Positions 4,356 to 23,105 of a stretch of DNA of 33,978 nucleotides are shown here, piece by piece. The first letter of the stretch is position 1; every line of letters begins with the position of its first letter. The notes below the pieces were generated by a model, which was given only the letters and a program-made list of their open reading frames with translations, was not told the origin of the DNA and did no database searches. The translations under genes were made by a program, and so were the position numbers. Source of the stretch: a virus. Location of the stretch: the IMG/VR virus record IMGVR_UViG_3300029868_000015. One strand, 5' to 3'.

Positions 4356-5336
4356 ATGGCTTCGGCTAATTCACTGTTTGACGATATTCTGACGTCAACG
4401 CTGATCAATCGTGATGGCGCTACCGCAGATAACGTATCAAACCATAACTCACTCTTGCGCTTCTTGCGTAAGGCTGGCAACATTTCATTGTATGACGGCG
4501 GCACTTCGCTATTGCAGAACATTGACTTCGCAGAAAACACTACTTTCAAGTGGTATAGCGATTACGATGTTCTTGACGTTTCAGCATCACAGACTTTTAG
4601 CGCTGCTGAGTACGATGAGAAGCAGTCTGCTGTTACTATCACTATGTCTGGTAAAGAGATGCGCCAGAACGCAGGCAGTAAAACCCGTGTATTCGATCTT
4701 GTAAAAGCTCGTATCATGAATGCTGACCGTACCGCTGCTAACAAGATTTCTACGGCAGTATATTCAGACGGAACTGGTTCTGGTGGTCAAGAGATTGGCG
4801 GCTTGCAGCTTCTTGTTGCTGATGATCCTACATCTGGTATCGTAGGCGGCATTAACCGCGCTAACTTCAGCTTCTGGCGTAACCAGAAATTTGATGTTGA
4901 CGTTGACGGTTCTGGCGCTGCTACTGCTGCGAACATTCAAGGCTACATGGATCAGCTATGGCTTGATTGTGTACGCGGCGAAGATGTTCCTAAGATGATC
5001 GTTGCAGACGTAAACTACTACAAGCTTTTCCGCGAGTCCTTGACTGACATTCAGCGCATCACAAGCACTGACACAGCAGGCGCTGGCGCAAACAACCTTG
5101 CCTACCACGGCACAGGCGGAACAGCACAGGTAATGATGGACAAGTCAGGCCCTGCAAATCACATGTATTTCTTGAACACAGACTTCCTGTTCTTCAAGGC
5201 GCACCGTGACGCTAACTTTACGTTCCAGCCTGAGCAGACACCTGTTAATCAAGACGCTGTTGTGAAGCACCTATTGTTCCAAGGTAATATGACCATGAGC
5301 AATGCTTCCCTCCAGGGCGTTCTGTTTGACGCATAA
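4356..5336 (+). CDS. Major capsid protein (candidate)
   Basis: 326 aa ORF directly after the scaffold gene, with the SD GGAGAA. The capsid plus decoration gene pair is followed by a strong hairpin. Order matches P22-type portal-scaffold-coat. Confidence 0.7.
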   Translation: MASANSLFDDILTSTLINRDGATADNVSNHNSLLRFLRKAGNISLYDGGTSLLQNIDFAENTTFKWYSDYDVLDVSASQTFSAAEYDEKQSAVTITMSGKEMRQNAGSKTRVFDLVKARIMNADRTAANKISTAVYSDGTGSGGQEIGGLQLLVADDPTSGIVGGINRANFSFWRNQKFDVDVDGSGAATAANIQGYMDQLWLDCVRGEDVPKMIVADVNYYKLFRESLTDIQRITSTDTAGAGANNLAYHGTGGTAQVMMDKSGPANHMYFLNTDFLFFKAHRDANFTFQPEQTPVNQDAVVKHLLFQGNMTMSNASLQGVLFDA

Positions 5337-5351
5337 GAAAGGAGAATAAAA

Positions 5352-5816
5352 ATGTCTAATGTAGGTTTAATTACTGACCGTATCGACACAAGCAAGAAAT
5401 ATACACTTGGCTTGGTTTTCGAGCAAAACCTTGATGCAACTGAAACTAAAAAGTTCAAGTACATTCAATATGAAGCTGGTACTGCCGCTGTAGCGGGTGT
5501 TGCTGGTGAGGTTTGTTACTATGATGGTGCCGGGGCAACTCTAACCAACATCGTAACAAGCGATCTATCTGATAGTGTTAATGTAGGCGCTGGCGTTCTT
5601 CAGGCTAATCTTGCTGACGGTAACTTCGGCTGGATTCAGGTTCGTGGTTCCGCAACGCTTACTATCGCACTAACCGCAGGCGCAGACGGTAACGCGCTTA
5701 CACCAGTTGGCTCAACAGACGGTTCACTTGATGTATCCGCCGCTTTTACTGACCATGTTTGTGCATATGCTGACGATATTTCTGAGAAGAAAATCATCTG
5801 TGCATTTCCAGACTAA
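5352..5816 (+). CDS. Head decoration / cement protein (candidate)
   Basis: 154 aa G/A/V-rich, beta-type sequence immediately after the capsid gene, with the strong SD GAAAGGAG. The call is positional. Confidence 0.4.
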   Translation: MSNVGLITDRIDTSKKYTLGLVFEQNLDATETKKFKYIQYEAGTAAVAGVAGEVCYYDGAGATLTNIVTSDLSDSVNVGAGVLQANLADGNFGWIQVRGSATLTIALTAGADGNALTPVGSTDGSLDVSAAFTDHVCAYADDISEKKIICAFPD

Positions 5817-5823
5817 TGAATTT

Positions 5824-5849
5824 GGGAGAGGGGCTTCGGCCCTTCTCTC
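5824..5849 (+). terminator. Stem-loop with a UUCG tetraloop after the capsid/decoration genes (attenuator or terminator-like, weak U tract)
   Basis: gggagaggggc ttcg gcccttctctc gives an 11-bp stem including 2 G-U pairs. It is followed by tcctc rather than a clean T run. Confidence 0.5.
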
Positions 5850-5873
5850 TCCTCAACAACAAAGGGCGAAACC

Positions 5874-6500
5874 ATGACTGACACAGAATTTTCCATATCT
5901 CACATCCACCAAGACGGCATAGATACAGGCACATTCATTTCCATCTACACTAAAGCTATACGAATGAACCGTCAGAGCGACGAAGAAGGCCGCGAGATTT
6001 ACGAAGACCGCGTATATATTAAGATTGAACCGCCAGGACAGACAAAATCTATCGTTAACCGCCCGATCAAAGATGATGACAAGGTGCGATTTAAAGCTGG
6101 GTGGGATAAGTTCGAGAGCGGAAAAGAATGTCAAGAGGGCGGCACACCAATTGAACGCTTGGGTGATTTGCCCCTATCTCGCTATAAGGAATTGCGGGCT
6201 ACTGGCTTTAGAACCATTGAACAATTAGCAAATGCACCAGATTCAAAGATTGGCTTTATTGGCCCTGATTCTTTGAACCTGAAAAAGCAAGCTAAATTAT
6301 TCCTTGCGGGACAAACAGAGGATAGTGTAAAGTTACAAGAGCTTGAAGCAGAGAATTCAGCCATGAAAGACGAAATGGCAGAGATGAAGGAAATGCTGGA
6401 ACAGCTAACGGCAGCCGAGGCCAAGCCGTCTACACCGAAACGTAGAGGAAGGCCTCCGAAGAATGACACTGCTGACCATAGTGAAGACAGCCCTGAATGA
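5874..6500 (+). CDS. Hypothetical head-module protein with an HhH-like segment and a C-terminal AT-hook
   Basis: 208 aa. LRATGFRTIEQLANAPDSKI is helix-hairpin-helix-like. A coiled-coil stretch (LQELEAENSAMKDEMAEMKEMLEQL) follows, then KRRGRPPKN, which contains the AT-hook core RGRP. Confidence 0.6.
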   Translation: MTDTEFSISHIHQDGIDTGTFISIYTKAIRMNRQSDEEGREIYEDRVYIKIEPPGQTKSIVNRPIKDDDKVRFKAGWDKFESGKECQEGGTPIERLGDLPLSRYKELRATGFRTIEQLANAPDSKIGFIGPDSLNLKKQAKLFLAGQTEDSVKLQELEAENSAMKDEMAEMKEMLEQLTAAEAKPSTPKRRGRPPKNDTADHSEDSPE

Positions 6501-8771: not shown

Positions 8772-9505
8772 TGGCAGATTTTACAGGTAATTCAATCGCA
8801 GATACTTACAAACGAGTGTTGCAGATCGGCGTGGATAATACCGGCGTTTCTGCAACACTACAGGACGTAGAAGACGGCGCGGGCGCAACAACGGCTTTGC
8901 AGCTGTCAACTAAAGCAGTCGTTTTCCAAAACGGCGGCACAGCGGAAGAATATGCTAGATTTAATGACAACGGCAAGTTATTGATGAACAATCCGGTAGC
9001 GTTAACCACTGGGCAGGGTTTCTCGTCTTCCCTTCAGTTAAACGGCTTGAATGGTAGCGATGCTAGCTTGTCAATTGCGCGATCTTCTGACAATACAGGC
9101 GGCACATTCTTATCTGGAAATAAGTCTAGGGGTACATTAGCTGCTCCGACTATTGTAGTGGACGGCGATAATATATTCAACATCACCGCAGCAGTACACA
9201 ACGGTACAGATTTTGACAATCCAGCGGTCCAAATGCGCTTTGTTGTTGAAGGCACTGTAACGCCCGGCGCGTCTTCGCAACCAGGAATGTTAGAAATAAC
9301 CAATGGTAGCGTTACGTCAGCTAGGTTTCATGGTGACAGTTACTTCGAAGTGCTTTTAGGAATTGTTAACGCCGTGTTTACAAACGGCTCAAGGCCTTCG
9401 GCTTCTTCTGTACGTGCAGGCACTGAGATTTGGAACAGCGACGACAAGTTTTCTAATACTTCAGACGGTTCTGACTGGTATGATCCTGCGGGGAACATCA
9501 CCTAA
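8771..9505 (+). CDS. Tail needle / fibre-like protein (candidate)
   Basis: 244 aa with a TAATG overlap. G/S/T/N-rich and beta-type. The call is positional. Confidence 0.35.
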   Translation: MADFTGNSIADTYKRVLQIGVDNTGVSATLQDVEDGAGATTALQLSTKAVVFQNGGTAEEYARFNDNGKLLMNNPVALTTGQGFSSSLQLNGLNGSDASLSIARSSDNTGGTFLSGNKSRGTLAAPTIVVDGDNIFNITAAVHNGTDFDNPAVQMRFVVEGTVTPGASSQPGMLEITNGSVTSARFHGDSYFEVLLGIVNAVFTNGSRPSASSVRAGTEIWNSDDKFSNTSDGSDWYDPAGNIT

Positions 9506-16257: not shown

Positions 16258-16456
16258 CTTATTTTCGGCTCTACTTGCAGACCTTAACGAAAACGCCGCA
16301 GCATACGGGTTAATAATTTCATTATGCATAGGGTTGATTGGTGTTATAATCCACGCCATACGAGGTGAAATCAACACAAGAGTAACAAAGAGAAACGCCC
16401 TGCTTACCAGAAAAGAACAGGCTCGGCACAATAGGGCGATTGAAGAAGCTAATTAG
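16247..16456 (+). CDS. Small membrane protein with a charged C-terminus
   Basis: Starts at ATG 16247 (alternative GTG 16205). Contains the TM segment YGLIISLCIGLIGVIIHAI and then a basic tail. It is the last gene of the rightward block. Confidence 0.5.
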   Translation: MTGSLFSALLADLNENAAAYGLIISLCIGLIGVIIHAIRGEINTRVTKRNALLTRKEQARHNRAIEEAN

Positions 16457-16769
16457 ATTCCTCCCAGGCATTCACAGCCCACGCCACCAAATCAATATCA
16501 TACATCTTCCTGAAGGCCTCTTCACCTCCGAGTAAATGCACGCCGTAACGACCCATATGGTGTTCAATATGACAAAGAGGAACCACAAACCTGTGATCCC
16601 TCCTTCTAGCTTTACCCTTCATATGCATAATATGGTGTGGAACAGCCTCCCTACCGCACACTAGGCATCCATAAGACAAAACCCGGTCAATGTGTGCCTG
16701 CTCTACCTTGTTGGGGTCTGCTGCCCCTTTAGGCTTAATGCGTTTGTGTTTGGGAGCTTTTGGCCGCAT
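16449..16769 (-). CDS. HNH-type nuclease, DUF968 / phage P1 Ref-like (candidate)
   Basis: Internal ATG 16769 follows the SD AAGGAG (the track start 17027 overlaps the upstream gene). The sequence CLVCGREAVPHHIMHMKGKARRRDHRFVVPLCHIEHHMGRYGVH fits the recalled pattern CxxC...HH...PLC..HH. Confidence 0.55.
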   Translation of the reverse strand: MRPKAPKHKRIKPKGAADPNKVEQAHIDRVLSYGCLVCGREAVPHHIMHMKGKARRRDHRFVVPLCHIEHHMGRYGVHLLGGEEAFRKMYDIDLVAWAVNAWEESN

Positions 16770-17117: not shown

Positions 17118-17450
17118 TTATTTCACAATGTGAACAGTTACCCCGTAGTGCGCCTTTACCAGTGCGCGCTTTAGCTTTGATGTTGAGGTATCCATTCCCT
17201 TGAAGTCTTCTATAATCTCTCCCCTTTCCTTATCCATGTATTTGAAATCAGCTTTATATACAGCTTGTCTGCCACTTTCGTATTTAACCGGGACATCGCC
17301 ACAATAGAGCTTAAATGATGGCTGTAGCTCCAGGTTACTAATAACTCCGCCACGCTCTAATAGCTTTAGCTCCCGATACCTGCGGCCCTCGCCTCTACTT
17401 GCAAACCTAATGCCGTCAATGGTTATAGGCTTTGCGCCGTACTTATTCAT
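17118..17450 (-). CDS. DUF1064-like protein (putative nuclease / resolvase-like)
   Basis: MNKYGAKPITIDGIRFASRGEGRRYRELKLLERGG...YKADFKY...IEDFKG matches the recalled DUF1064 pattern. ATG 17450 follows the SD-like GAGAG, so the track start 17462 is less likely. Confidence 0.6.
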   Translation of the reverse strand: MNKYGAKPITIDGIRFASRGEGRRYRELKLLERGGVISNLELQPSFKLYCGDVPVKYESGRQAVYKADFKYMDKERGEIIEDFKGMDTSTSKLKRALVKAHYGVTVHIVK

Positions 17451-17451
17451 T

Positions 17452-17646
17452 CTAGCTCTCATCTTTTGGGGGTTTGTTGGCTAAATAGAACTCGGCGATT
17501 GCGTTGTAGAGCGCATTGCCAGTCTTGTCTCGATAACCACCATCAAAGCTCACCCCAAAACATTCAGTCAGAGAGTCAAATAACTCGTGACAACACTGCT
17601 CAATGTATTCGCTTTCCGGTCCTGTCAATTTATCCCTAGCTTCCAT
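17452..17646 (-). CDS. Hypothetical protein (64 aa)
   Basis: ATG 17646 follows the SD AAGGAT and overlaps the upstream gene by 11 nt. The C-terminus is ...LANKPPKDES. Confidence 0.5.
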   Translation of the reverse strand: MEARDKLTGPESEYIEQCCHELFDSLTECFGVSFDGGYRDKTGNALYNAIAEFYLANKPPKDES

Positions 17647-17974
17647 TGTCTGTATCCTTCGGGCGTTTGTTGTCAAAACTAGGGAAAAAATTAGCAGGAT
17701 CGGCATAGTAAGCGTGACTGCACATAATCACGTTTCTAAAACCATCGTCGCCGGTGAACATTGCCAGTATTGGATGAAAGCCACCATCAACCAAAATAAG
17801 CCACGGATTACCACTAGGCGCGTATTCGCTCTTAGGCCATGTCTTAACGTCCTCAGGGTCAAGCGTATCCCAAGCCGCATCAATACCAGCGCGCAGCATC
17901 GGCGCGGCTATGGGGGAAACGAATTCCTTTGCGGCTTCATCCTCGGCGGCAAGTTTCATTTTTTCGCTAATCAT
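17636..17974 (-). CDS. Hypothetical protein (112 aa)
   Basis: ATGA overlap with the upstream gene. The C-terminus is ...FDNKRPKDTDNGS. Confidence 0.55.
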   Translation of the reverse strand: MISEKMKLAAEDEAAKEFVSPIAAPMLRAGIDAAWDTLDPEDVKTWPKSEYAPSGNPWLILVDGGFHPILAMFTGDDGFRNVIMCSHAYYADPANFFPSFDNKRPKDTDNGS

Positions 17975-18198
17975 TTGATGCTCCCATCATTTGGGGGTTT
18001 GTTGGCAACTAGTTTGATGTGGCTTTTTCGTGCTGGATCGTTGTTAGTAACCTCAAAATCTCCATGTTGGATAAGCAAAGAAATATGCTCTTTCGCATCA
18101 CCTTCTTGCTCGAACTGCATAGCGTCATCACTGATAATGTGATCTTCATCCGATCCTAAAAATAGGCCAGTCGGCTTATGTTTGATTACGTACGTCAT
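17971..18198 (-). CDS. Hypothetical protein (75 aa)
   Basis: ORF with the C-terminus ...VANKPPNDGSIK. Confidence 0.55.
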   Translation of the reverse strand: MTYVIKHKPTGLFLGSDEDHIISDDAMQFEQEGDAKEHISLLIQHGDFEVTNNDPARKSHIKLVANKPPNDGSIK

Positions 18199-18210
18199 GT
18201 TATTTATCCG

Positions 18211-18366
18211 TTACTTTCTCGGCCTTAAAAAATACTCGTCAATGAAATGGACACCCCAAAGCAAAACGAAACTTGCATCAGCACGCTTGCCTCGGCTCTC
18301 TGTCTTGCGAACCAACCAAAACCCCACAAGAAGATATATTGCTATTGTGATGGCTATGATTTCCAT
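18211..18366 (-). CDS. Small membrane protein (51 aa, MEIIAITIAIYLLVGFWLV...)
   Basis: Hand-translated because it is below the track size cutoff. ATG 18366 is in an ATGA overlap with the upstream stop. One clear TM segment. Confidence 0.45.
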   Translation of the reverse strand: MEIIAITIAIYLLVGFWLVRKTESRGKRADASFVLLWGVHFIDEYFLRPRK

Positions 18367-18782
18367 CACGTCTCTCCCTCGACAGGTGATAGGGGTGAGT
18401 TGGCAGGATTTCCAAAGGCGGCTTGTGCGGCCTCAGTAACGGGCGTCATAGCTTCGCCATAACCCCAAACATCACCGCGCCAGTCTTTAAAGTTTCTGAA
18501 ATAATTTAAATTCACCGGCTTACCCTTTCGAATGTAGTCGGTGAACATTTTGACAATACTTTGAAGCGTTCCGCCGTTGGTGAAACCCTTATGCCAATTG
18601 TTCATGCCTGTTAGATAAATTGCCTTATTGGTATATTCATCACGCCATCTAAGATGGCCATCAAACCCAAGGAAAAAATGACCGTAGCGATCAAACTTTT
18701 TGCTGTAGAAAAACCGGCGACCATTATCGGCCATGACACGTATGAAGGTGTTCACCTGCTTTATGCGATCCGCTTTATTCAT
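18366..18782 (-). CDS. Hypothetical protein (138 aa)
   Basis: ATGA overlap with the upstream gene. Aromatic-rich sequence with no family recognised. Confidence 0.55.
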   Translation of the reverse strand: MNKADRIKQVNTFIRVMADNGRRFFYSKKFDRYGHFFLGFDGHLRWRDEYTNKAIYLTGMNNWHKGFTNGGTLQSIVKMFTDYIRKGKPVNLNYFRNFKDWRGDVWGYGEAMTPVTEAAQAAFGNPANSPLSPVEGET

Positions 18783-19030
18783 TGCTCAGTCTCCAGGGGG
18801 CGTTTGTTGGCCGGACGGGCCATTGCCCAAGTGGACTTAACTTTAACCGCATGGCTATAACCAGCGAACAAATCATTTCCTGTTGTTCCAGGATACGCAG
18901 TGGTCGTTATGCCGTTAATATTTAATTCAGTATTCACCCCCAGCAGGGTTGCAACACGGCAAAGCTCGTCACAGCCCTCTCGTATAGAAGGCCCCGCAAC
19001 ATTGTCTAACTTGAGTGTAAGGATGCCCAT
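18779..19030 (-). CDS. Hypothetical protein (83 aa)
   Basis: First gene downstream of the inverted cassette, with a candidate promoter of its own. The C-terminus is ...PANKRPLETEQ. Confidence 0.55.
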   Translation of the reverse strand: MGILTLKLDNVAGPSIREGCDELCRVATLLGVNTELNINGITTTAYPGTTGNDLFAGYSHAVKVKSTWAMARPANKRPLETEQ

Positions 19031-19077: not shown

Positions 19078-19105
19078 ACTGTACTAGATATGTAGGAGTT
19101 GTCAA
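19078..19105 (-). promoter_or_regulatory. Candidate sigma70-like promoter reading leftward into 18779..19030
   Basis: On the minus strand: TTGACA (19105-19100), a 16-nt spacer, then TACAGT (19083-19078). Confidence 0.4.
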
Positions 19106-19106
19106 G

Positions 19107-19649
19107 TTGAATTCAAGATTTAAAATAGGTTTTATTCAGGTTCTTAATTATGGCCCATCTGCCGATCAACAGGAACAAATGCTTGTTGGTGCTGGCGTGC
19201 TGAAGGACAACATATTCAGATCAAAGCCTGATACTATTCTTGATGCAATCAACGCCTGCCGTTTAGGTGACAAAAACATTCTTGTCGTAGCCTTTGAGCG
19301 TATCCTTGGTAAGCTTACAGGCGAGGTATTCAAACAGTTGGATGAACGGGGCGCAGACCTTTACTGTGTGGCTAGCGATACCCTGTACCCTGGCGCTAAT
19401 GGTGCGACGTTCTGCGAGTTCCTTAAGCAAAAGCAAAAGGGGCAGACTGCCAAGGCACGTTCTATGCGTGGTGATAGAAAAGGCGGCGCTCCCGTTAAGG
19501 TCACTGCTACCGACCTGCTGCGCGCTGAGAAGCTTATTCATCAAGGCTGGTCTATGCGCGAAGTCACTGACGAACTTGGCGTGGCTCCTAACTACCTCTA
19601 TCGCAAAGGGATTACGCTTGAGAGTGTCACGGCCAAGTACGACAACTGA
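19107..19649 (+). CDS. Serine-recombinase (resolvase/invertase)-like protein lacking the catalytic serine, with a C-terminal HTH; probable DNA-binding regulator
   Basis: TTG start lies 8 nt after AGGAG. IGFIQVLNYGPSADQQEQMLVGAGV..NIF...GDKNILVVAFERILGK aligns by eye with the resolvase pattern GYxRVSTxxQ....L...G.....if.D...GD.LvV..lDRLgR, but RVS is replaced by QVL. The C-terminal WSMREVTDELGVAPNYLYRK is HTH_7-like. Confidence 0.6.
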   Translation: MNSRFKIGFIQVLNYGPSADQQEQMLVGAGVLKDNIFRSKPDTILDAINACRLGDKNILVVAFERILGKLTGEVFKQLDERGADLYCVASDTLYPGANGATFCEFLKQKQKGQTAKARSMRGDRKGGAPVKVTATDLLRAEKLIHQGWSMREVTDELGVAPNYLYRKGITLESVTAKYDN

Positions 19650-19660
19650 TGACTGTTTGC

Positions 19661-19891
19661 TCATGTTCCATGCTCCATATATTGCAAATAAACATCTAAA
19701 GCCGCGAGCATTGGCCATTTAACATTGGTGCCCATAAAGCCCATGTTTTGGTAATGAGTGTCCATCCCAATCAGTGCCCGAGTTTCTCTTTCGGTCATAT
19801 CAAACTGTTCTGAGAGTTTTTCAACATCGTGTCCCTTGCAGAGTTCGTCTACCCATTCCACGATAGATGTATTATCAACTGTAGACTTCAT
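19661..19891 (-). CDS. Hypothetical protein (76 aa)
   Basis: ATGA overlap with the upstream gene. N-terminus MKSTVD. Confidence 0.55.
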   Translation of the reverse strand: MKSTVDNTSIVEWVDELCKGHDVEKLSEQFDMTERETRALIGMDTHYQNMGFMGTNVKWPMLAALDVYLQYMEHGT

Positions 19892-20082
19892 ATCATTACC
19901 TCAATCTTTACAGGCACAAATTTCAGACGCTTAAATAGTTCGTATTCACCACATATTGTATCGTGAAAATTAAGCTCGGCTTCTTCCTCATTCGATCCAA
20001 TGGCGTTGATGTAATAAACATCTTCAACAGGATCATAGGGGATTACACCCTTGAATTTCTTGTCAACTGATGACTGTTTCAT
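19888..20082 (-). CDS. Hypothetical protein (64 aa)
   Basis: ATGA overlap with the upstream gene. N-terminus MKQSSVD. Confidence 0.55.
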   Translation of the reverse strand: MKQSSVDKKFKGVIPYDPVEDVYYINAIGSNEEEAELNFHDTICGEYELFKRLKFVPVKIEVMI

Positions 20083-20318
20083 TCGATCACTCCTTCAGCC
20101 TTCAGCACAAGTTCAAGCATATGCTCAATAACCTTGCTTGCTTCAGGGCTTCTCTCTGCCGCTTTTTGAATGATTGCTTGATAGCGCCCGCAAATCATCG
20201 CGGTTGCCATACCAGAAGTGGCTGAGTGCCTATATTCGTAGCTTTCGAGCATTGCCATAAGCTCGACCACGCGAGGCAATCTATTGATGACAACTGAGGA
20301 CCTAGTAGAACTCGACAT
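20079..20318 (-). CDS. Hypothetical protein (about 79 aa)
   Basis: ATG 20318 (or 20321) follows the SD GGAGG. The track start 20441 lies inside the upstream gene. N-terminus MSSSTRSSVV. Confidence 0.5.
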   Translation of the reverse strand: MSSSTRSSVVINRLPRVVELMAMLESYEYRHSATSGMATAMICGRYQAIIQKAAERSPEASKVIEHMLELVLKAEGVIE

Positions 20319-20604: not shown

Positions 20605-20891
20605 AGTGACAACCTCACTTTTTGAAACGGGATAATACCAACTATCTCTTCGTCGGGAAAAACAGGCTCCTTTGACCACTCAACTTTAAAGTTGAAATAC
20701 ATGCGGCCATCCCCACTGAATTTATAGTTTCCGGGGTTAGGAATATGGACGTGCGGCAGTGCATCAACCAGATTTTGAGCCTGCCCTTTAGTGATCCTAC
20801 ATTTGCGCGCTAATTCAGAAAGCCATATGGGACCACTGCCTTTTACAATGCGGGTTAGCTTTTCGCCCATGTCAACTGAGGACTGTTTCAT
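20601..20891 (-). CDS. Hypothetical protein with a winged-helix-like segment
   Basis: N-terminus MKQSSVD. LSELARKCRITKGQAQNLVDAL looks like an HTH. Confidence 0.5.
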   Translation of the reverse strand: MKQSSVDMGEKLTRIVKGSGPIWLSELARKCRITKGQAQNLVDALPHVHIPNPGNYKFSGDGRMYFNFKVEWSKEPVFPDEEIVGIIPFQKVRLSL

Positions 20892-21109
20892 AAATCTAAC
20901 CCTTCCAAAATCTTGCGCTTCGAAACCTCCAACATGAAAACCGCTGATGAGTTATCCATATGACTGCTGGTGATTGCTAATGCGCCGTCCTTGTCATAGC
21001 TAATTATCAGAACATCTTTCATGCCTTCACGTCCGACCTTTTCAAGTGCTTGTTCAACCGTCATTTTATCATGATTGTTTAACTCGCTGACAACTGATGA
21101 CTTAGACAT
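20888..21109 (-). CDS. Hypothetical protein (73 aa)
   Basis: ATG 21109 (MSKSSVV...) overlaps the peptidase stop by 8 nt. The track start 21127 is less likely. Confidence 0.5.
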   Translation of the reverse strand: MSKSSVVSELNNHDKMTVEQALEKVGREGMKDVLIISYDKDGALAITSSHMDNSSAVFMLEVSKRKILEGLDL

Positions 21110-21545
21110 GTGGCAACCCCTTCGCATAAAGATTGTGCGTCTTAGTTAAAACCTCGTTCCGGTTCTTCTCTGAGATGCTGCAATGTATCCAGGCTTTCCC
21201 GAGCTGACGCTGTTCGAGTATGAGCTGGTCAAACTCAACATTGTCTCTAATCCAGCGCGCTAGATTTACAATGTCAATTCCTGGCACGGTGAAGTCAACA
21301 GCTTGGCCTAGCATGTGCTGGCTTTTCGGTGAGCCTCCTATAGCCGAGTTAAGCGCCTCACATCTAAACCCGCTACTAGGCGTTATCGGTACACCGTAAT
21401 GCTCTCTGACGGGCTGTAAAATCTCGTTACATACGCGCTCAAGGTATTCTTCTGCCTTCTTGTCAGGCGTGTTGTCTATGCCTTCACGTTCCGCTGTATC
21501 GCTGCGGGTCATTTCTGCAAGGGTAAAGTTTTTGCTCAGTTCCAT
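21102..21545 (-). CDS. Peptidase M15 family (VanY / L-alanyl-D-glutamate peptidase-like) cell-wall hydrolase; endolysin candidate
   Basis: FTLAEMTRS...SGFRCEALNSAIGGSPKSQHMLGQAVDF...WIHCS matches the recalled Peptidase_M15_3 zinc-site pattern (SGyR...N...GG...SqH..G.AvD...H). Confidence 0.8.
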   Translation of the reverse strand: MELSKNFTLAEMTRSDTAEREGIDNTPDKKAEEYLERVCNEILQPVREHYGVPITPSSGFRCEALNSAIGGSPKSQHMLGQAVDFTVPGIDIVNLARWIRDNVEFDQLILEQRQLGKAWIHCSISEKNRNEVLTKTHNLYAKGLPHV

Positions 21546-22141: not shown

Positions 22142-22299
22142 CCGAGCTAGAAAGATTTAAGCACGACATTGACCAGCAGATAATTGCGCTGGAGGGTTAT
22201 CTTTTAGGCAAAGGCCAAACCCAGGCGGTGCGGGAACTGATGTTTCAGAAGCAGCGATTTGACCAAATTATGAACGAACAAATAAAGGGCGAGATATGA
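22138..22299 (+). CDS. Small hypothetical protein (53 aa)
   Basis: Hand-translated as MTELERFKHDIDQQIIALEGYLLGKGQ.... ATGA overlaps are present at both ends. Confidence 0.45.
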   Translation: MTELERFKHDIDQQIIALEGYLLGKGQTQAVRELMFQKQRFDQIMNEQIKGEI

Positions 22300-23105
22300 G
22301 CGAATTAAATATACACCAGCGGATTGCAGCAGTTATGCAGGCTATCGCATACGTGCAAAAAGAGAATAAAAAGGTCAACAATCAGTACACGTTTGTTAGC
22401 CATGACGCCGTTACAGCGGCAGTGAGAACGCACCTTATTGATAACGGTATCGTTGTTATCCCCACGGTGACAAAGCATATACAGGACGGCAACAGGACCG
22501 AGGTAGATTTAAACATCGACTTCGTGAACATTGATAAACCTGAAGACAAGATTTCAGTGCAGATGTTCGGCTATGGTGTTGACCAACAAGACAAGGGGCC
22601 GGGCAAGGCTTTCTCATACGCAAAGAAATACGCCTTCCTGCAATTGTTCCTCTTGGAAACTGGCGACGATCCAGAGCGTGACAACATTGACCACAGGAAA
22701 ACATCGCGCACGAAAACAGCGGTTCACAAGGATATGAAAGCCGCAGCGTTTAAGATGACACAGACCGCAACCATTGAAGCGTTTGAAAGCTTCTTGGCTG
22801 GTGACGGGTTCCAAAAGCTGATTAAAGAGTTACGCAGTGAATGGCCTGAAGAATTTCAAGGCTTGCGTGAAGAGAAGGACAAGCACAAGAAACGCCTTGA
22901 GGCTGGCCCAAAGCTCACCAGTGAAGATATACAGCTCTATATAGAGAAGTTCACTAAAGACCTTAGCTCTGAATTTGATGCTGGAATGTGCGCGGAAATG
23001 TTTAAGATAGCCAAGAACGACCTGTTAAAAGCTGCCGCAACTGGCGAGCAAATCCATGAGGTCGAGGTTGCTTATGATGAACACATACAGCGCTTAGGTG
23101 ATTAA
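22296..23105 (+). CDS. erf: ERF-family single-strand annealing recombinase
   Basis: The N-terminal 130 aa (IHQRIAAVMQAIAYVQKENKKVNNQYTFVSHDAVTAAVRTHLIDNGI...GPGKAFSYAKKYAFLQLFLLETGDDPE) match the recalled ERF domain pattern. Confidence 0.75.
   Translation: MSELNIHQRIAAVMQAIAYVQKENKKVNNQYTFVSHDAVTAAVRTHLIDNGIVVIPTVTKHIQDGNRTEVDLNIDFVNIDKPEDKISVQMFGYGVDQQDKGPGKAFSYAKKYAFLQLFLLETGDDPERDNIDHRKTSRTKTAVHKDMKAAAFKMTQTATIEAFESFLAGDGFQKLIKELRSEWPEEFQGLREEKDKHKKRLEAGPKLTSEDIQLYIEKFTKDLSSEFDAGMCAEMFKIAKNDLLKAAATGEQIHEVEVAYDEHIQRLGD

Follow-up and report, generated by a model that had tools for sequence, protein, structure and literature searches.

The window analysed here is a contig of ~34 kb from an uncultured phage (IMG/VR record IMGVR_UViG_3300029868_000015; JGI 3300005056 Ga0071102_1000499; 33,978 nucleotides in full). 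Between positions 17,452 and 19,030, on the minus strand, it carries an array of six small open reading frames (ORFs), g1 to g6, followed by a DUF1064 gene, g7 (Table 1). A short element recurs at the 3' ends of these ORFs, where it is read in every window copy as A/D-N-x-(P/R)-P, and it is this element and its role at the junctions between the small genes that we describe. The element had been predicted from the letters of the window alone, with copies starting at 18811, 18404, 18006, 17674 and 17481 on the minus strand, and all five are present. The original prediction held that these copies close five consecutive genes. Five genes do carry the element, but g3, an ORF of 52 amino acids (aa), intervenes without it.

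A search of the window for GCCAACAAACSCCC with at most 2 mismatches returned 4 matches, all of them in the array, a number that 0 of 100 shuffles reached. The fifth copy, at the end of g2 (18404, GCCAACTCACCCCT), has 3 mismatches to GCCAACAAACSCCC and is alone at chance level. However, a pattern derived from the relatives described below, G N C R A C W N W S S C C, matches the window exactly 5 times compared with 0.41 expected, all 5 matches being the predicted sites, and the S-type junction that follows g2 recurs in one of the relatives (L253); the weak g2 copy is validated on these two grounds. The motif starts 28-35 nt before the next start codon, and at the window junctions stop and start codons overlap or abut. 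The spacing from the motif to the next start is less variable than that from the motif to its own stop. The junctions after g4 and g6, which had been described as near-identical, indeed match at 25/27 positions, though the gene bodies upstream of them are unrelated.

Table 1 Features of the motif array and its surroundings in the window.
Feature	Position	Strand	Description
Motif copy 1	18798-18811	-	GCCAACAAACGCCC; 3' end of g1; 29 nt before g2 start
Motif copy 2, S-type	18391-18404	-	GCCAACTCACCCCT; 3' end of g2 (YoqU); 35 nt before g3 start
Motif copy 3	17993-18006	-	GCCAACAAACCCCC; 3' end of g4; 32 nt before g5 start
Motif copy 4	17661-17674	-	GACAACAAACGCCC; 3' end of g5; 28 nt before g6 start
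Motif copy 5	17468-17481	-	GCCAACAAACCCCC; 3' end of g6; 31 nt before g7 (DUF1064) start
g1	18779-19030	-	83 aa; no family match; first cassette of the array
g2	18366-18782	-	138 aa; YoqU family (PF27459); sole cassette in common with relatives
g3	18211-18369	-	52 aa; hydrophobic, putative membrane ORF; end without the element
g4	17971-18198	-	75 aa; no family match
g5	17636-17974	-	112 aa; no family match; 3' two-thirds paralogous to g6
g6	17452-17646	-	64 aa; no family match; diverged partial duplicate of g5
g7	17118-17450	-	110 aa; DUF1064, Holliday-junction-resolvase-like; first gene past the motif array
Sigma-70-like promoter candidate of the array	19078-19105	-	TTGACA-16-TACAGT, ahead of g1; GACAAC hexamer overlaps the -35 element
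Resolvase-like helix-turn-helix gene	19107-19649	+	180 aa; divergent from the array; conserved beside motif arrays
5'-end element of upper-array genes	19640-19664, 19871-19891, 20061-20082	-	M-x-K-x-S-S-V-D; contains TCATCAGTTGAC
5'-end element, further copies	20288-20305, 20870-20891, 21088-21109	-	

A protein search with g2 gave YoqU homologs of 51-61% identity on short contigs (L253, L254/L255 and L256), in which nearly all small ORFs end in the same kind of tail. Directly before the stop codon, these tails read, among others, ANCPPKEKQ, VNCPPEVENEDV, DDKRPLEKSDE, VNKRPLETCHE, ANSSPKGSDNG and NNTPPSSTEDGK. BLASTP among the four arrays (the window and these three relatives) identified YoqU as the one common gene. 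Homologs of the 180-aa helix-turn-helix (HTH) protein encoded divergently from the array, with 49-56% identity, were found on two contigs of ~36 kb each (L266 and L267) and on a fragment that also carries a tyrosine integrase (L268). In all three, the operon divergent from the HTH gene is made up of small ORFs that have the motif at their ends (17 of 21 ORFs in L267); the array convergent on the HTH gene is without the 3' motif. The search of related genomes that had been proposed as a check was thus positive in L253, L254/L255, L256, L266, L267 and L268, and the element is missing from none of these six contigs. In the four arrays compared by BLASTP the ORFs other than YoqU vary and the linker is kept, and the reading of the element as a cassette boundary largely holds.

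Other searches delimited this family. The loci reached in IMG/VR and metagenomes from three anchors (DUF1064, ERF and a tail gene) were only distant and non-syntenic, and none had the motif. A concatenated g1+g4+g5+g6 protein query returned no matches, a result that is unreliable since the window's own proteins were not returned either (the g2 search did return g2). A junction-specific pattern and a two-copy gapped pattern run against IMG/VR retrieved nothing, or unrelated tandem repeats. The exact 16-mer, searched in IMG/VR and GTDB genomes, gave single matches in about the number expected by chance, two or three of which looked start-associated; a universal translational element was rejected, as the 16-mer lay near starts in 3/131 cases against a background of 1.75% (p = 0.40). 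Two repeats of other kinds were also seen. One phage (L258, IMGVR_UViG_2630968576_000005) carries at ~8900-9500 on the minus strand a 54-nt tandem repeat of at least 12 copies, each with CTCAACAAACGCCC, and in L261 the repeat AACAACACTCCCCCTCGAGGGGAG recurs ~10 times at ~4900-6400, also on the minus strand, once every ~76-85 nt. These two repeat families are probably unrelated to the motif and contain strings resembling it by chance. A more distant YoqU array (L263; Logan SRR29093000, 1-2000) has a different conserved junction, its ORFs ending before the stop codon in ...(V)TD(Q/R)xGG, encoded by ...GTCACAGACC..GGAGGGTGA and followed by C(A/G)TG. From these sequences, lineage-specific junction modules seem to be a general feature of such arrays.

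When the seven phages were pooled, the motif was present at 46 of 59 array ORF ends (45 unique), compared with 4.5% of random 61-nt windows, and all copies were in frame 0. The core is 14 nt long, 5'-NNC AAC WNN NSC CC-3', in one fixed reading frame, and the edges of its logo are sharp, with zero information before position 1 or after position 14. C3, C12 and C13 are invariant in 45/45 copies and A4 and A5 in 42/45, counts that are partly circular because copies were gathered with a score that took in these very positions and tolerated one mismatch. A start was called within 60 nt of 39 copies; it lies 25-38 nt away (mean 30) in all of them but one, for which the distance is 53 nt. Two copies, in L253 and L267, at first appeared to lack a nearby start, but each is followed 25-31 nt downstream by a small ORF missing from the annotation. 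At almost every junction, including those of the relatives, the stop codon overlaps the next start codon (ATGA, TGATG or TAATG type).

We then asked whether the conserved object is the peptide or the nucleic acid. Codon 1 of the motif is GCC, GTC, GAC, AAC, TAC, TCC or ACC, and codon 4 is CGC, CCC, GGC, TGC, TCC or GAC; they specify seven (A/V/D/N/Y/S/T) and six (R/P/G/C/S/D) amino acids, respectively, but always end in C. Codons that are rare in the phage are fixed in the motif (GCC accounts for 17% of Ala and CCC for 12% of Pro codons), and if only the window copies are taken, with their amino acids as given, all columns would show identical codons with a probability of ~3e-6. Where the g5 and g6 copies differ, the changes are non-synonymous and radical (A/D, P/R) as often as they are synonymous. 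Third positions of YoqU are 32-47% identical between phages, which is near saturation, and a single codon is kept in 8 of its 43 invariant amino-acid columns. A copy in L267 that overlaps a stop codon, is out of frame and is untranslated still keeps the motif. Conversely, P0003, a fused cassette, contains an internal relic in which the otherwise invariant third bases have been lost (AAC to AAT, GGC to GGT). Because the untranslated copy keeps the motif, the residues vary and the P0003 relic has lost its third bases, we conclude that the selected object is a nucleic-acid string; the ANK(P/R)P peptide is a by-product of its translation.

Selection for a shared C-terminal peptide ([AVD]-N-x-[PR]-P plus an acidic tail), acting as a docking, degradation or stalling signal, is accordingly very improbable. 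It would fit the single reading frame of all copies and the frequencies of Asn at codon 2 (69% of copies) and Pro at codon 5 (73%), and PP, known as a pause motif, is present in roughly half of the copies. It does not fit the chemically diverse residues at codons 1, 3 and 4 beneath invariant third bases, the tolerance of radical swaps, the fixation of rare codons, the retention of the motif in an untranslated copy, or the P0003 relic (…SINKGS…), in which several residues were retained and the invariant third bases lost. The peptide is not explained by a shared domain either: the YoqU domain stops before the tail, the residues vary from copy to copy above invariant third bases, and since more distant YoqU proteins lack the tail, it is not part of that domain. 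Homology extending upstream of the tail, which would have spoken for a domain, is found in the g5/g6 pair and in no other cassette.

The g5/g6 pair also qualifies the earlier statement that the upstream proteins are otherwise unrelated. Beyond the tails, and g5/g6 aside, the cassette bodies of the window have no protein similarity. In nucleotide local alignments scored against codon shuffles, the other pairs tested remain below z = 1.4, as that statement would have it, whereas g5/g6 reaches z = 7.6, and its members must be regarded, at the nucleotide level, as diverged paralogs. Collinear segments run through both genes, one of them a stretch of 33 nt with ~82% identity and a frameshifting indel, which makes g6 a partial copy of g5 that has since diverged and that took the junction with it. 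The pair (17482-17974, minus strand) offers a view of very fast divergence of small early genes with retention of the junction. Their junction subtypes differ (CGCCC versus CCCCC) and the unrelated g4 shares the g6 subtype nearly exactly, so that junction history and gene-body history disagree. That both paralogs retained their junction is what would be seen if the repeats were a passive relic, i.e. functionless, undiverged remains of tandem duplications of one ancestral cassette. We disfavour this explanation and give it hardly any credence: all other pairs lack residual similarity, the motif is kept between phages with near-saturated synonymous sites, its conservation is position-specific with sharp 14-nt boundaries, and YoqU, tail-less elsewhere, has acquired a tail here.

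Comparison of individual junctions between phages revealed where the arrays are joined. The K-type junction, ACAAACGCCCCYTGGAGA, precedes YoqU in three phages (the window, L255 and L256) and lies behind three unrelated upstream ORFs. The S-type junction is found after YoqU in the window and before YoqU in L253, the patch at 18402-18371 of the window being 94% identical over 32 nt to positions 134-165 of L253. Patches that are 100% identical between unrelated ORFs were found for L253/L256 (22 nt) and L253/L254 (20 nt). Junction patches of 20-32 nt are thus 94-100% identical between phages, with unrelated ORFs on either side, and fused and decayed cassettes were found as well. These results show that mosaic joints fall at the junctions, that cassettes are exchanged or replaced between conserved linkers, and that this replacement between phages happens at the junctions themselves. 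The element itself is shown to be a real, family-wide, frame-locked boundary motif at the nucleotide level, in arrays most of whose cassettes are without a detectable homolog.

What might read such a motif? That some bases are invariant and others free suggests a protein as the reader, whether of DNA or of RNA. In all four loci with visible context, the motif array is divergent from the conserved, degenerate resolvase-like HTH gene, whose product is the obvious candidate for the motif reader. The 180-aa protein of the window has a C-terminal HTH and a weak full-length similarity to the Gin DNA invertase (E = 0.17) but no Pfam match. Among the four homologs, there is no invariant Ser in the N-terminal region, and the catalytic Arg is not conserved. 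An active serine recombinase beside the array was rejected on these grounds, and with the invariant nucleophilic Ser and catalytic Arg missing, an active integron-like recombinase is unlikely. Two further observations concern this gene: an antisense ORF (19263-19664, minus strand), which starts with the N-terminal element of the upper array, overlaps it, and an ENA metagenome fragment of 1.8 kb with 99.95% identity to the window (L252) has a 1-nt deletion at ~19560 that frameshifts the HTH protein.

The first option is that the HTH protein, or another phage protein, binds the junctions as DNA. The stoperators of Cluster A mycobacteriophages (L5 gp71 sites) are 13-bp asymmetric sites present in many copies; they are bound by the immunity repressor, and elongation is blocked (PMC9283540, PMC3029335). 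Stoperator-like sites in the array would silence or attenuate its transcription, and the cassette joints would be secondary. We consider this unlikely, although several features argue for it. The motif is asymmetric, ~14 bp long and made of invariant and free positions, as for protein recognition; its copies are all co-oriented with transcription; motif arrays are divergent from the HTH gene in 4/4 visible contexts and the convergent array is without the motif; and a G[AT]CAAC hexamer overlaps the -35 element of the array promoter in 3/4 phages. In size (13-14 bp), multiple copies, orientation rule and location at gene junctions of phage operons, L5-type stoperators are similar (PMC9283540). 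However, a stoperator is also an operator at the early promoter, whereas the promoter copies here share only the hexamer, which largely coincides with TTGACA, and the right half (CSCCC) and hence the full motif are absent. The conserved sequences between the HTH gene and the array otherwise resemble GTACA/TGTAC-type repeats. Moreover, stoperators occupy short intergenic spaces throughout the genome, whereas the motif lies frame-locked inside coding 3' ends and is confined to one operon, and the two sequences are unrelated.

The second option is an RNA-level operator or processing site. An RNA-binding protein or endoribonuclease, of the phage or of the host, would recognise the motif 25-38 nt upstream of starts, and would control or couple translation or cut the polycistronic mRNA into units. 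The narrow distance to the called next start (one outlier at 53 nt aside), the smaller variation in the window of this distance than of that to the own stop, and the unannotated small ORFs behind the copies seemingly without a start are all in line with such a site, and the motif is mostly unpaired in predicted folds. A precedent exists in the start-associated sequences (SAS) and extended SAS (ESAS) of Cluster K mycobacteriophages, start-associated repeats without a known reader (PMC3203893). The SAS is a 13-bp sequence, GGGATAGGAGCCC, located 3-7 bp upstream of start codons and containing a Shine-Dalgarno (SD)-like AGGAG (PMC3203893). Like the motif, SAS/ESAS are ~13-nt asymmetric repeats in one orientation, restricted to non-structural genes, found at the starts of diverse gene families and conserved across subclusters or phages. 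The motif differs in lying 25-38 nt upstream, in frame inside the upstream ORF and separate from the SD, in its unrelated sequence and in the absence of an ESAS-like inverted repeat. An RNA-level site is in our view rather unlikely, since no candidate factor presented itself, distance and frame could equally result from common descent of the junction module, the motif is missing from the other genes of the phage, and the 16-mer is not enriched near starts in unrelated genomes (3/131, p = 0.40). The motif reader may be a DNA-binding protein of the stoperator kind, an RNA-level factor or the ribosome.

A third alternative gives the motif itself a role in recombination, and for this the second junction element of the window is relevant. 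The original prediction described two sub-arrays of one leftward operon, each with its own junction element. The second element does exist, at the 5' ends of the upper-array genes (Table 1), and it is conserved in the relatives (MSKQSSVD and MKTGSSVD in L266; MKSRSSVD in L267). The two sub-arrays are not one operon, however, but separate transcription units, since the opposite-strand gene at 19107-19649 and the promoter-like site at 19105-19078 lie between them. The 5'-end element also contains TTGACA. Read on the opposite strand it includes GTCAAC(TG), which is the left half of the 3' motif, so the two arrays carry this hexamer inverted around the resolvase-like gene. In an integron-like phage platform, the 14-nt core would be both recognised and crossed over by a dedicated system built around the serine-recombinase-derived protein or a recruited partner. 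That system would capture, excise and reshuffle promoterless, coupled orphan-ORF cassettes (e.g. host-takeover or anti-defence genes), and the GTCAAC hexamer that lies inverted in the convergent array's N-terminal element could belong to it. As in the motif array, integron cassettes are promoterless, in one orientation, closed by a boundary site and divergent from a recombinase-family gene, and RYYYAAC-like 'CAAC' cores occur in both attC and the motif. We nevertheless regard the integron-like platform as distinctly improbable. Integron attC sites are imperfect hairpins of 57-141 bp (R''-L''...L'-R') used by a tyrosine recombinase, IntI. The 14-nt core, in contrast, lacks both dyad symmetry and a conserved fold, inspection of the junctions showed no GTTRRRY core on its 3' side, and its neighbour is not a tyrosine recombinase but a degenerate serine-recombinase-like HTH protein without the conserved nucleophile. 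Serine invertase and resolvase sites (hix/gix/res) are not a better match: they are ~26-30 bp long, have dyad symmetry and lie alongside an active serine recombinase, whereas the motif copies are asymmetric direct repeats beside a protein that has no invariant N-terminal Ser among four homologs.

The explanation we favour, to which we assign a probability of roughly 55%, is that the element is a nucleotide-level boundary signal, or inter-cassette linker, that closes translationally coupled small-ORF cassettes in an uncultured phage family. The core heads a junction module of ~30-45 nt, which supplies a short hydrophilic tail, the SD region and the overlapping stop/start of the next cistron. 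The junctions have the features of translationally coupled operons, namely overlapping stop and start codons and an SD inside the 3' end of the upstream gene. The module would be retained since the next cistron needs it for its expression or regulation, either by translational coupling or through a sequence-specific factor acting on mRNA or DNA. As the array has no other sequence in common, the junction may double as a homology patch or recombination joint for cassette shuffling, with the phage-encoded ERF, Ref-like HNH and DUF1064 proteins as candidate helpers. One local duplication, that of g5/g6, took the linker along.

The boundary linker also has a counterpart in the promoter early stem-loop (PeSL) elements of T4-type phages. 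These combine an intergenic sigma-70 promoter with a stem-loop terminator and delimit transcriptionally autonomous cassettes (PMC2839356, PMC4122927), and modular exchange at such linkers, a pattern put forward for linker-mediated modular evolution, has been shown experimentally (PMC2839356). Both PeSLs and the motif are short conserved elements flanking orphan ORFs in hyperplastic regions and linkers for modular shuffling, and mosaic joints of the PeSL type, falling within the element, are seen at the motif junctions of the related phages. The motif has neither promoter nor stem-loop, however; its genes overlap, the linker is coding, and the cassettes are translationally coupled in one transcript. 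Stoperators, SAS/ESAS and PeSLs are the closest known systems, and the motif lacks defining features of each.

Several points weigh against the boundary linker. For homologous recombination, a core of 14 nt that includes variable positions is short, and invariance at specific bases is more suggestive of a site recognised by a protein than of a mere patch of homology. Part of that invariance stems from the way in which the motif set was defined, as mentioned above, and most of the relatives are short metagenomic contigs. In the window, the relatives-derived motif occurs nowhere else, the other ~60 phage genes being without it, and it is therefore not a general translation signal. Searches of folds, 16S complementarity, promoters, terminators and Rfam brought out no motif reader. 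No consensus RNA fold was obtained at the junctions, a strong local hairpin being present at the g5/g6 junction only; sequestration of the SD by the C-run was inconsistent across copies; and complementarity to 16S rRNA was no better than for shuffles, using the E. coli 16S as a proxy. Neither sigma-70 promoters nor terminators were found at the junctions, and Rfam and tRNA scans gave no match. Two other mechanisms were rejected: a programmed frameshift at the C-run, as a general mechanism, because only g6/g7 would fuse, and a C/A-rich enhancer upstream of all genes, because the remaining upstream regions are without such a sequence.

The array lies among the leftward genes of the window, which span 21.75 kb down to 16.4 kb. 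Structural genes occupy the plus strand up to ~16.2 kb, and a rightward operon begins at 21.87 kb. A search of a phage collection found no close relatives of the window at the DNA level among deposited phages; the portal protein is ~30% identical to portals of Bradyrhizobium, Rhizobium, Brucella and Mx8 phages. An NCBI entry with a protein identical to g2 belongs to a metagenome-assembled genome labelled 'Flavobacteriales bacterium' (JKY52_00055). We doubt this host assignment, because clear SD-like sites precede most genes and the portal is alphaproteobacterial-phage-like. A string resembling a ribosome-binding site, RGGGCGA(G/A)A rather than the canonical AGGAGG, recurs 5-8 nt ahead of ATG in many genes of the window, for example upstream of the starts at 2959, 3225, 5874, 14146, 16777, 22296, 25762 and 31491. 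The window also encodes a recombination toolkit, comprising a DUF968/Ref-like HNH protein, which matches RecA-dependent nuclease weakly, and ERF, a single-strand annealing protein, in regions 16449-16769 and 22296-23105, in addition to DUF1064; together they could exploit short homologies. Finally, ~37 nt of g6 (~17575-17611, minus strand; …EYIEQCCHELF…) resemble part of a Peptidase_M15_3 gene (~21416-21450, minus strand; …EYLERVCNEIL…) at both the nucleotide and the amino-acid level (z = 4.9; E = 8e-4 by BLASTP against a small local database), a likeness that may reflect patchwork origin or chance.

How fast-turnover orphan genes in the early regions of phages are gained, expressed and exchanged is an old question with roots in the 'linker' hypothesis of modular evolution. 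The array offers an explicit, frame-locked, nucleotide-level linker at almost every cassette, beside a conserved pseudo-recombinase gene, which makes the linker question testable. For annotators, it is a warning that a shared C-terminal 'peptide motif' can be the by-product of a nucleic-acid signal, and for metagenomics, the motif provides a sequence handle by which such arrays may be spotted.

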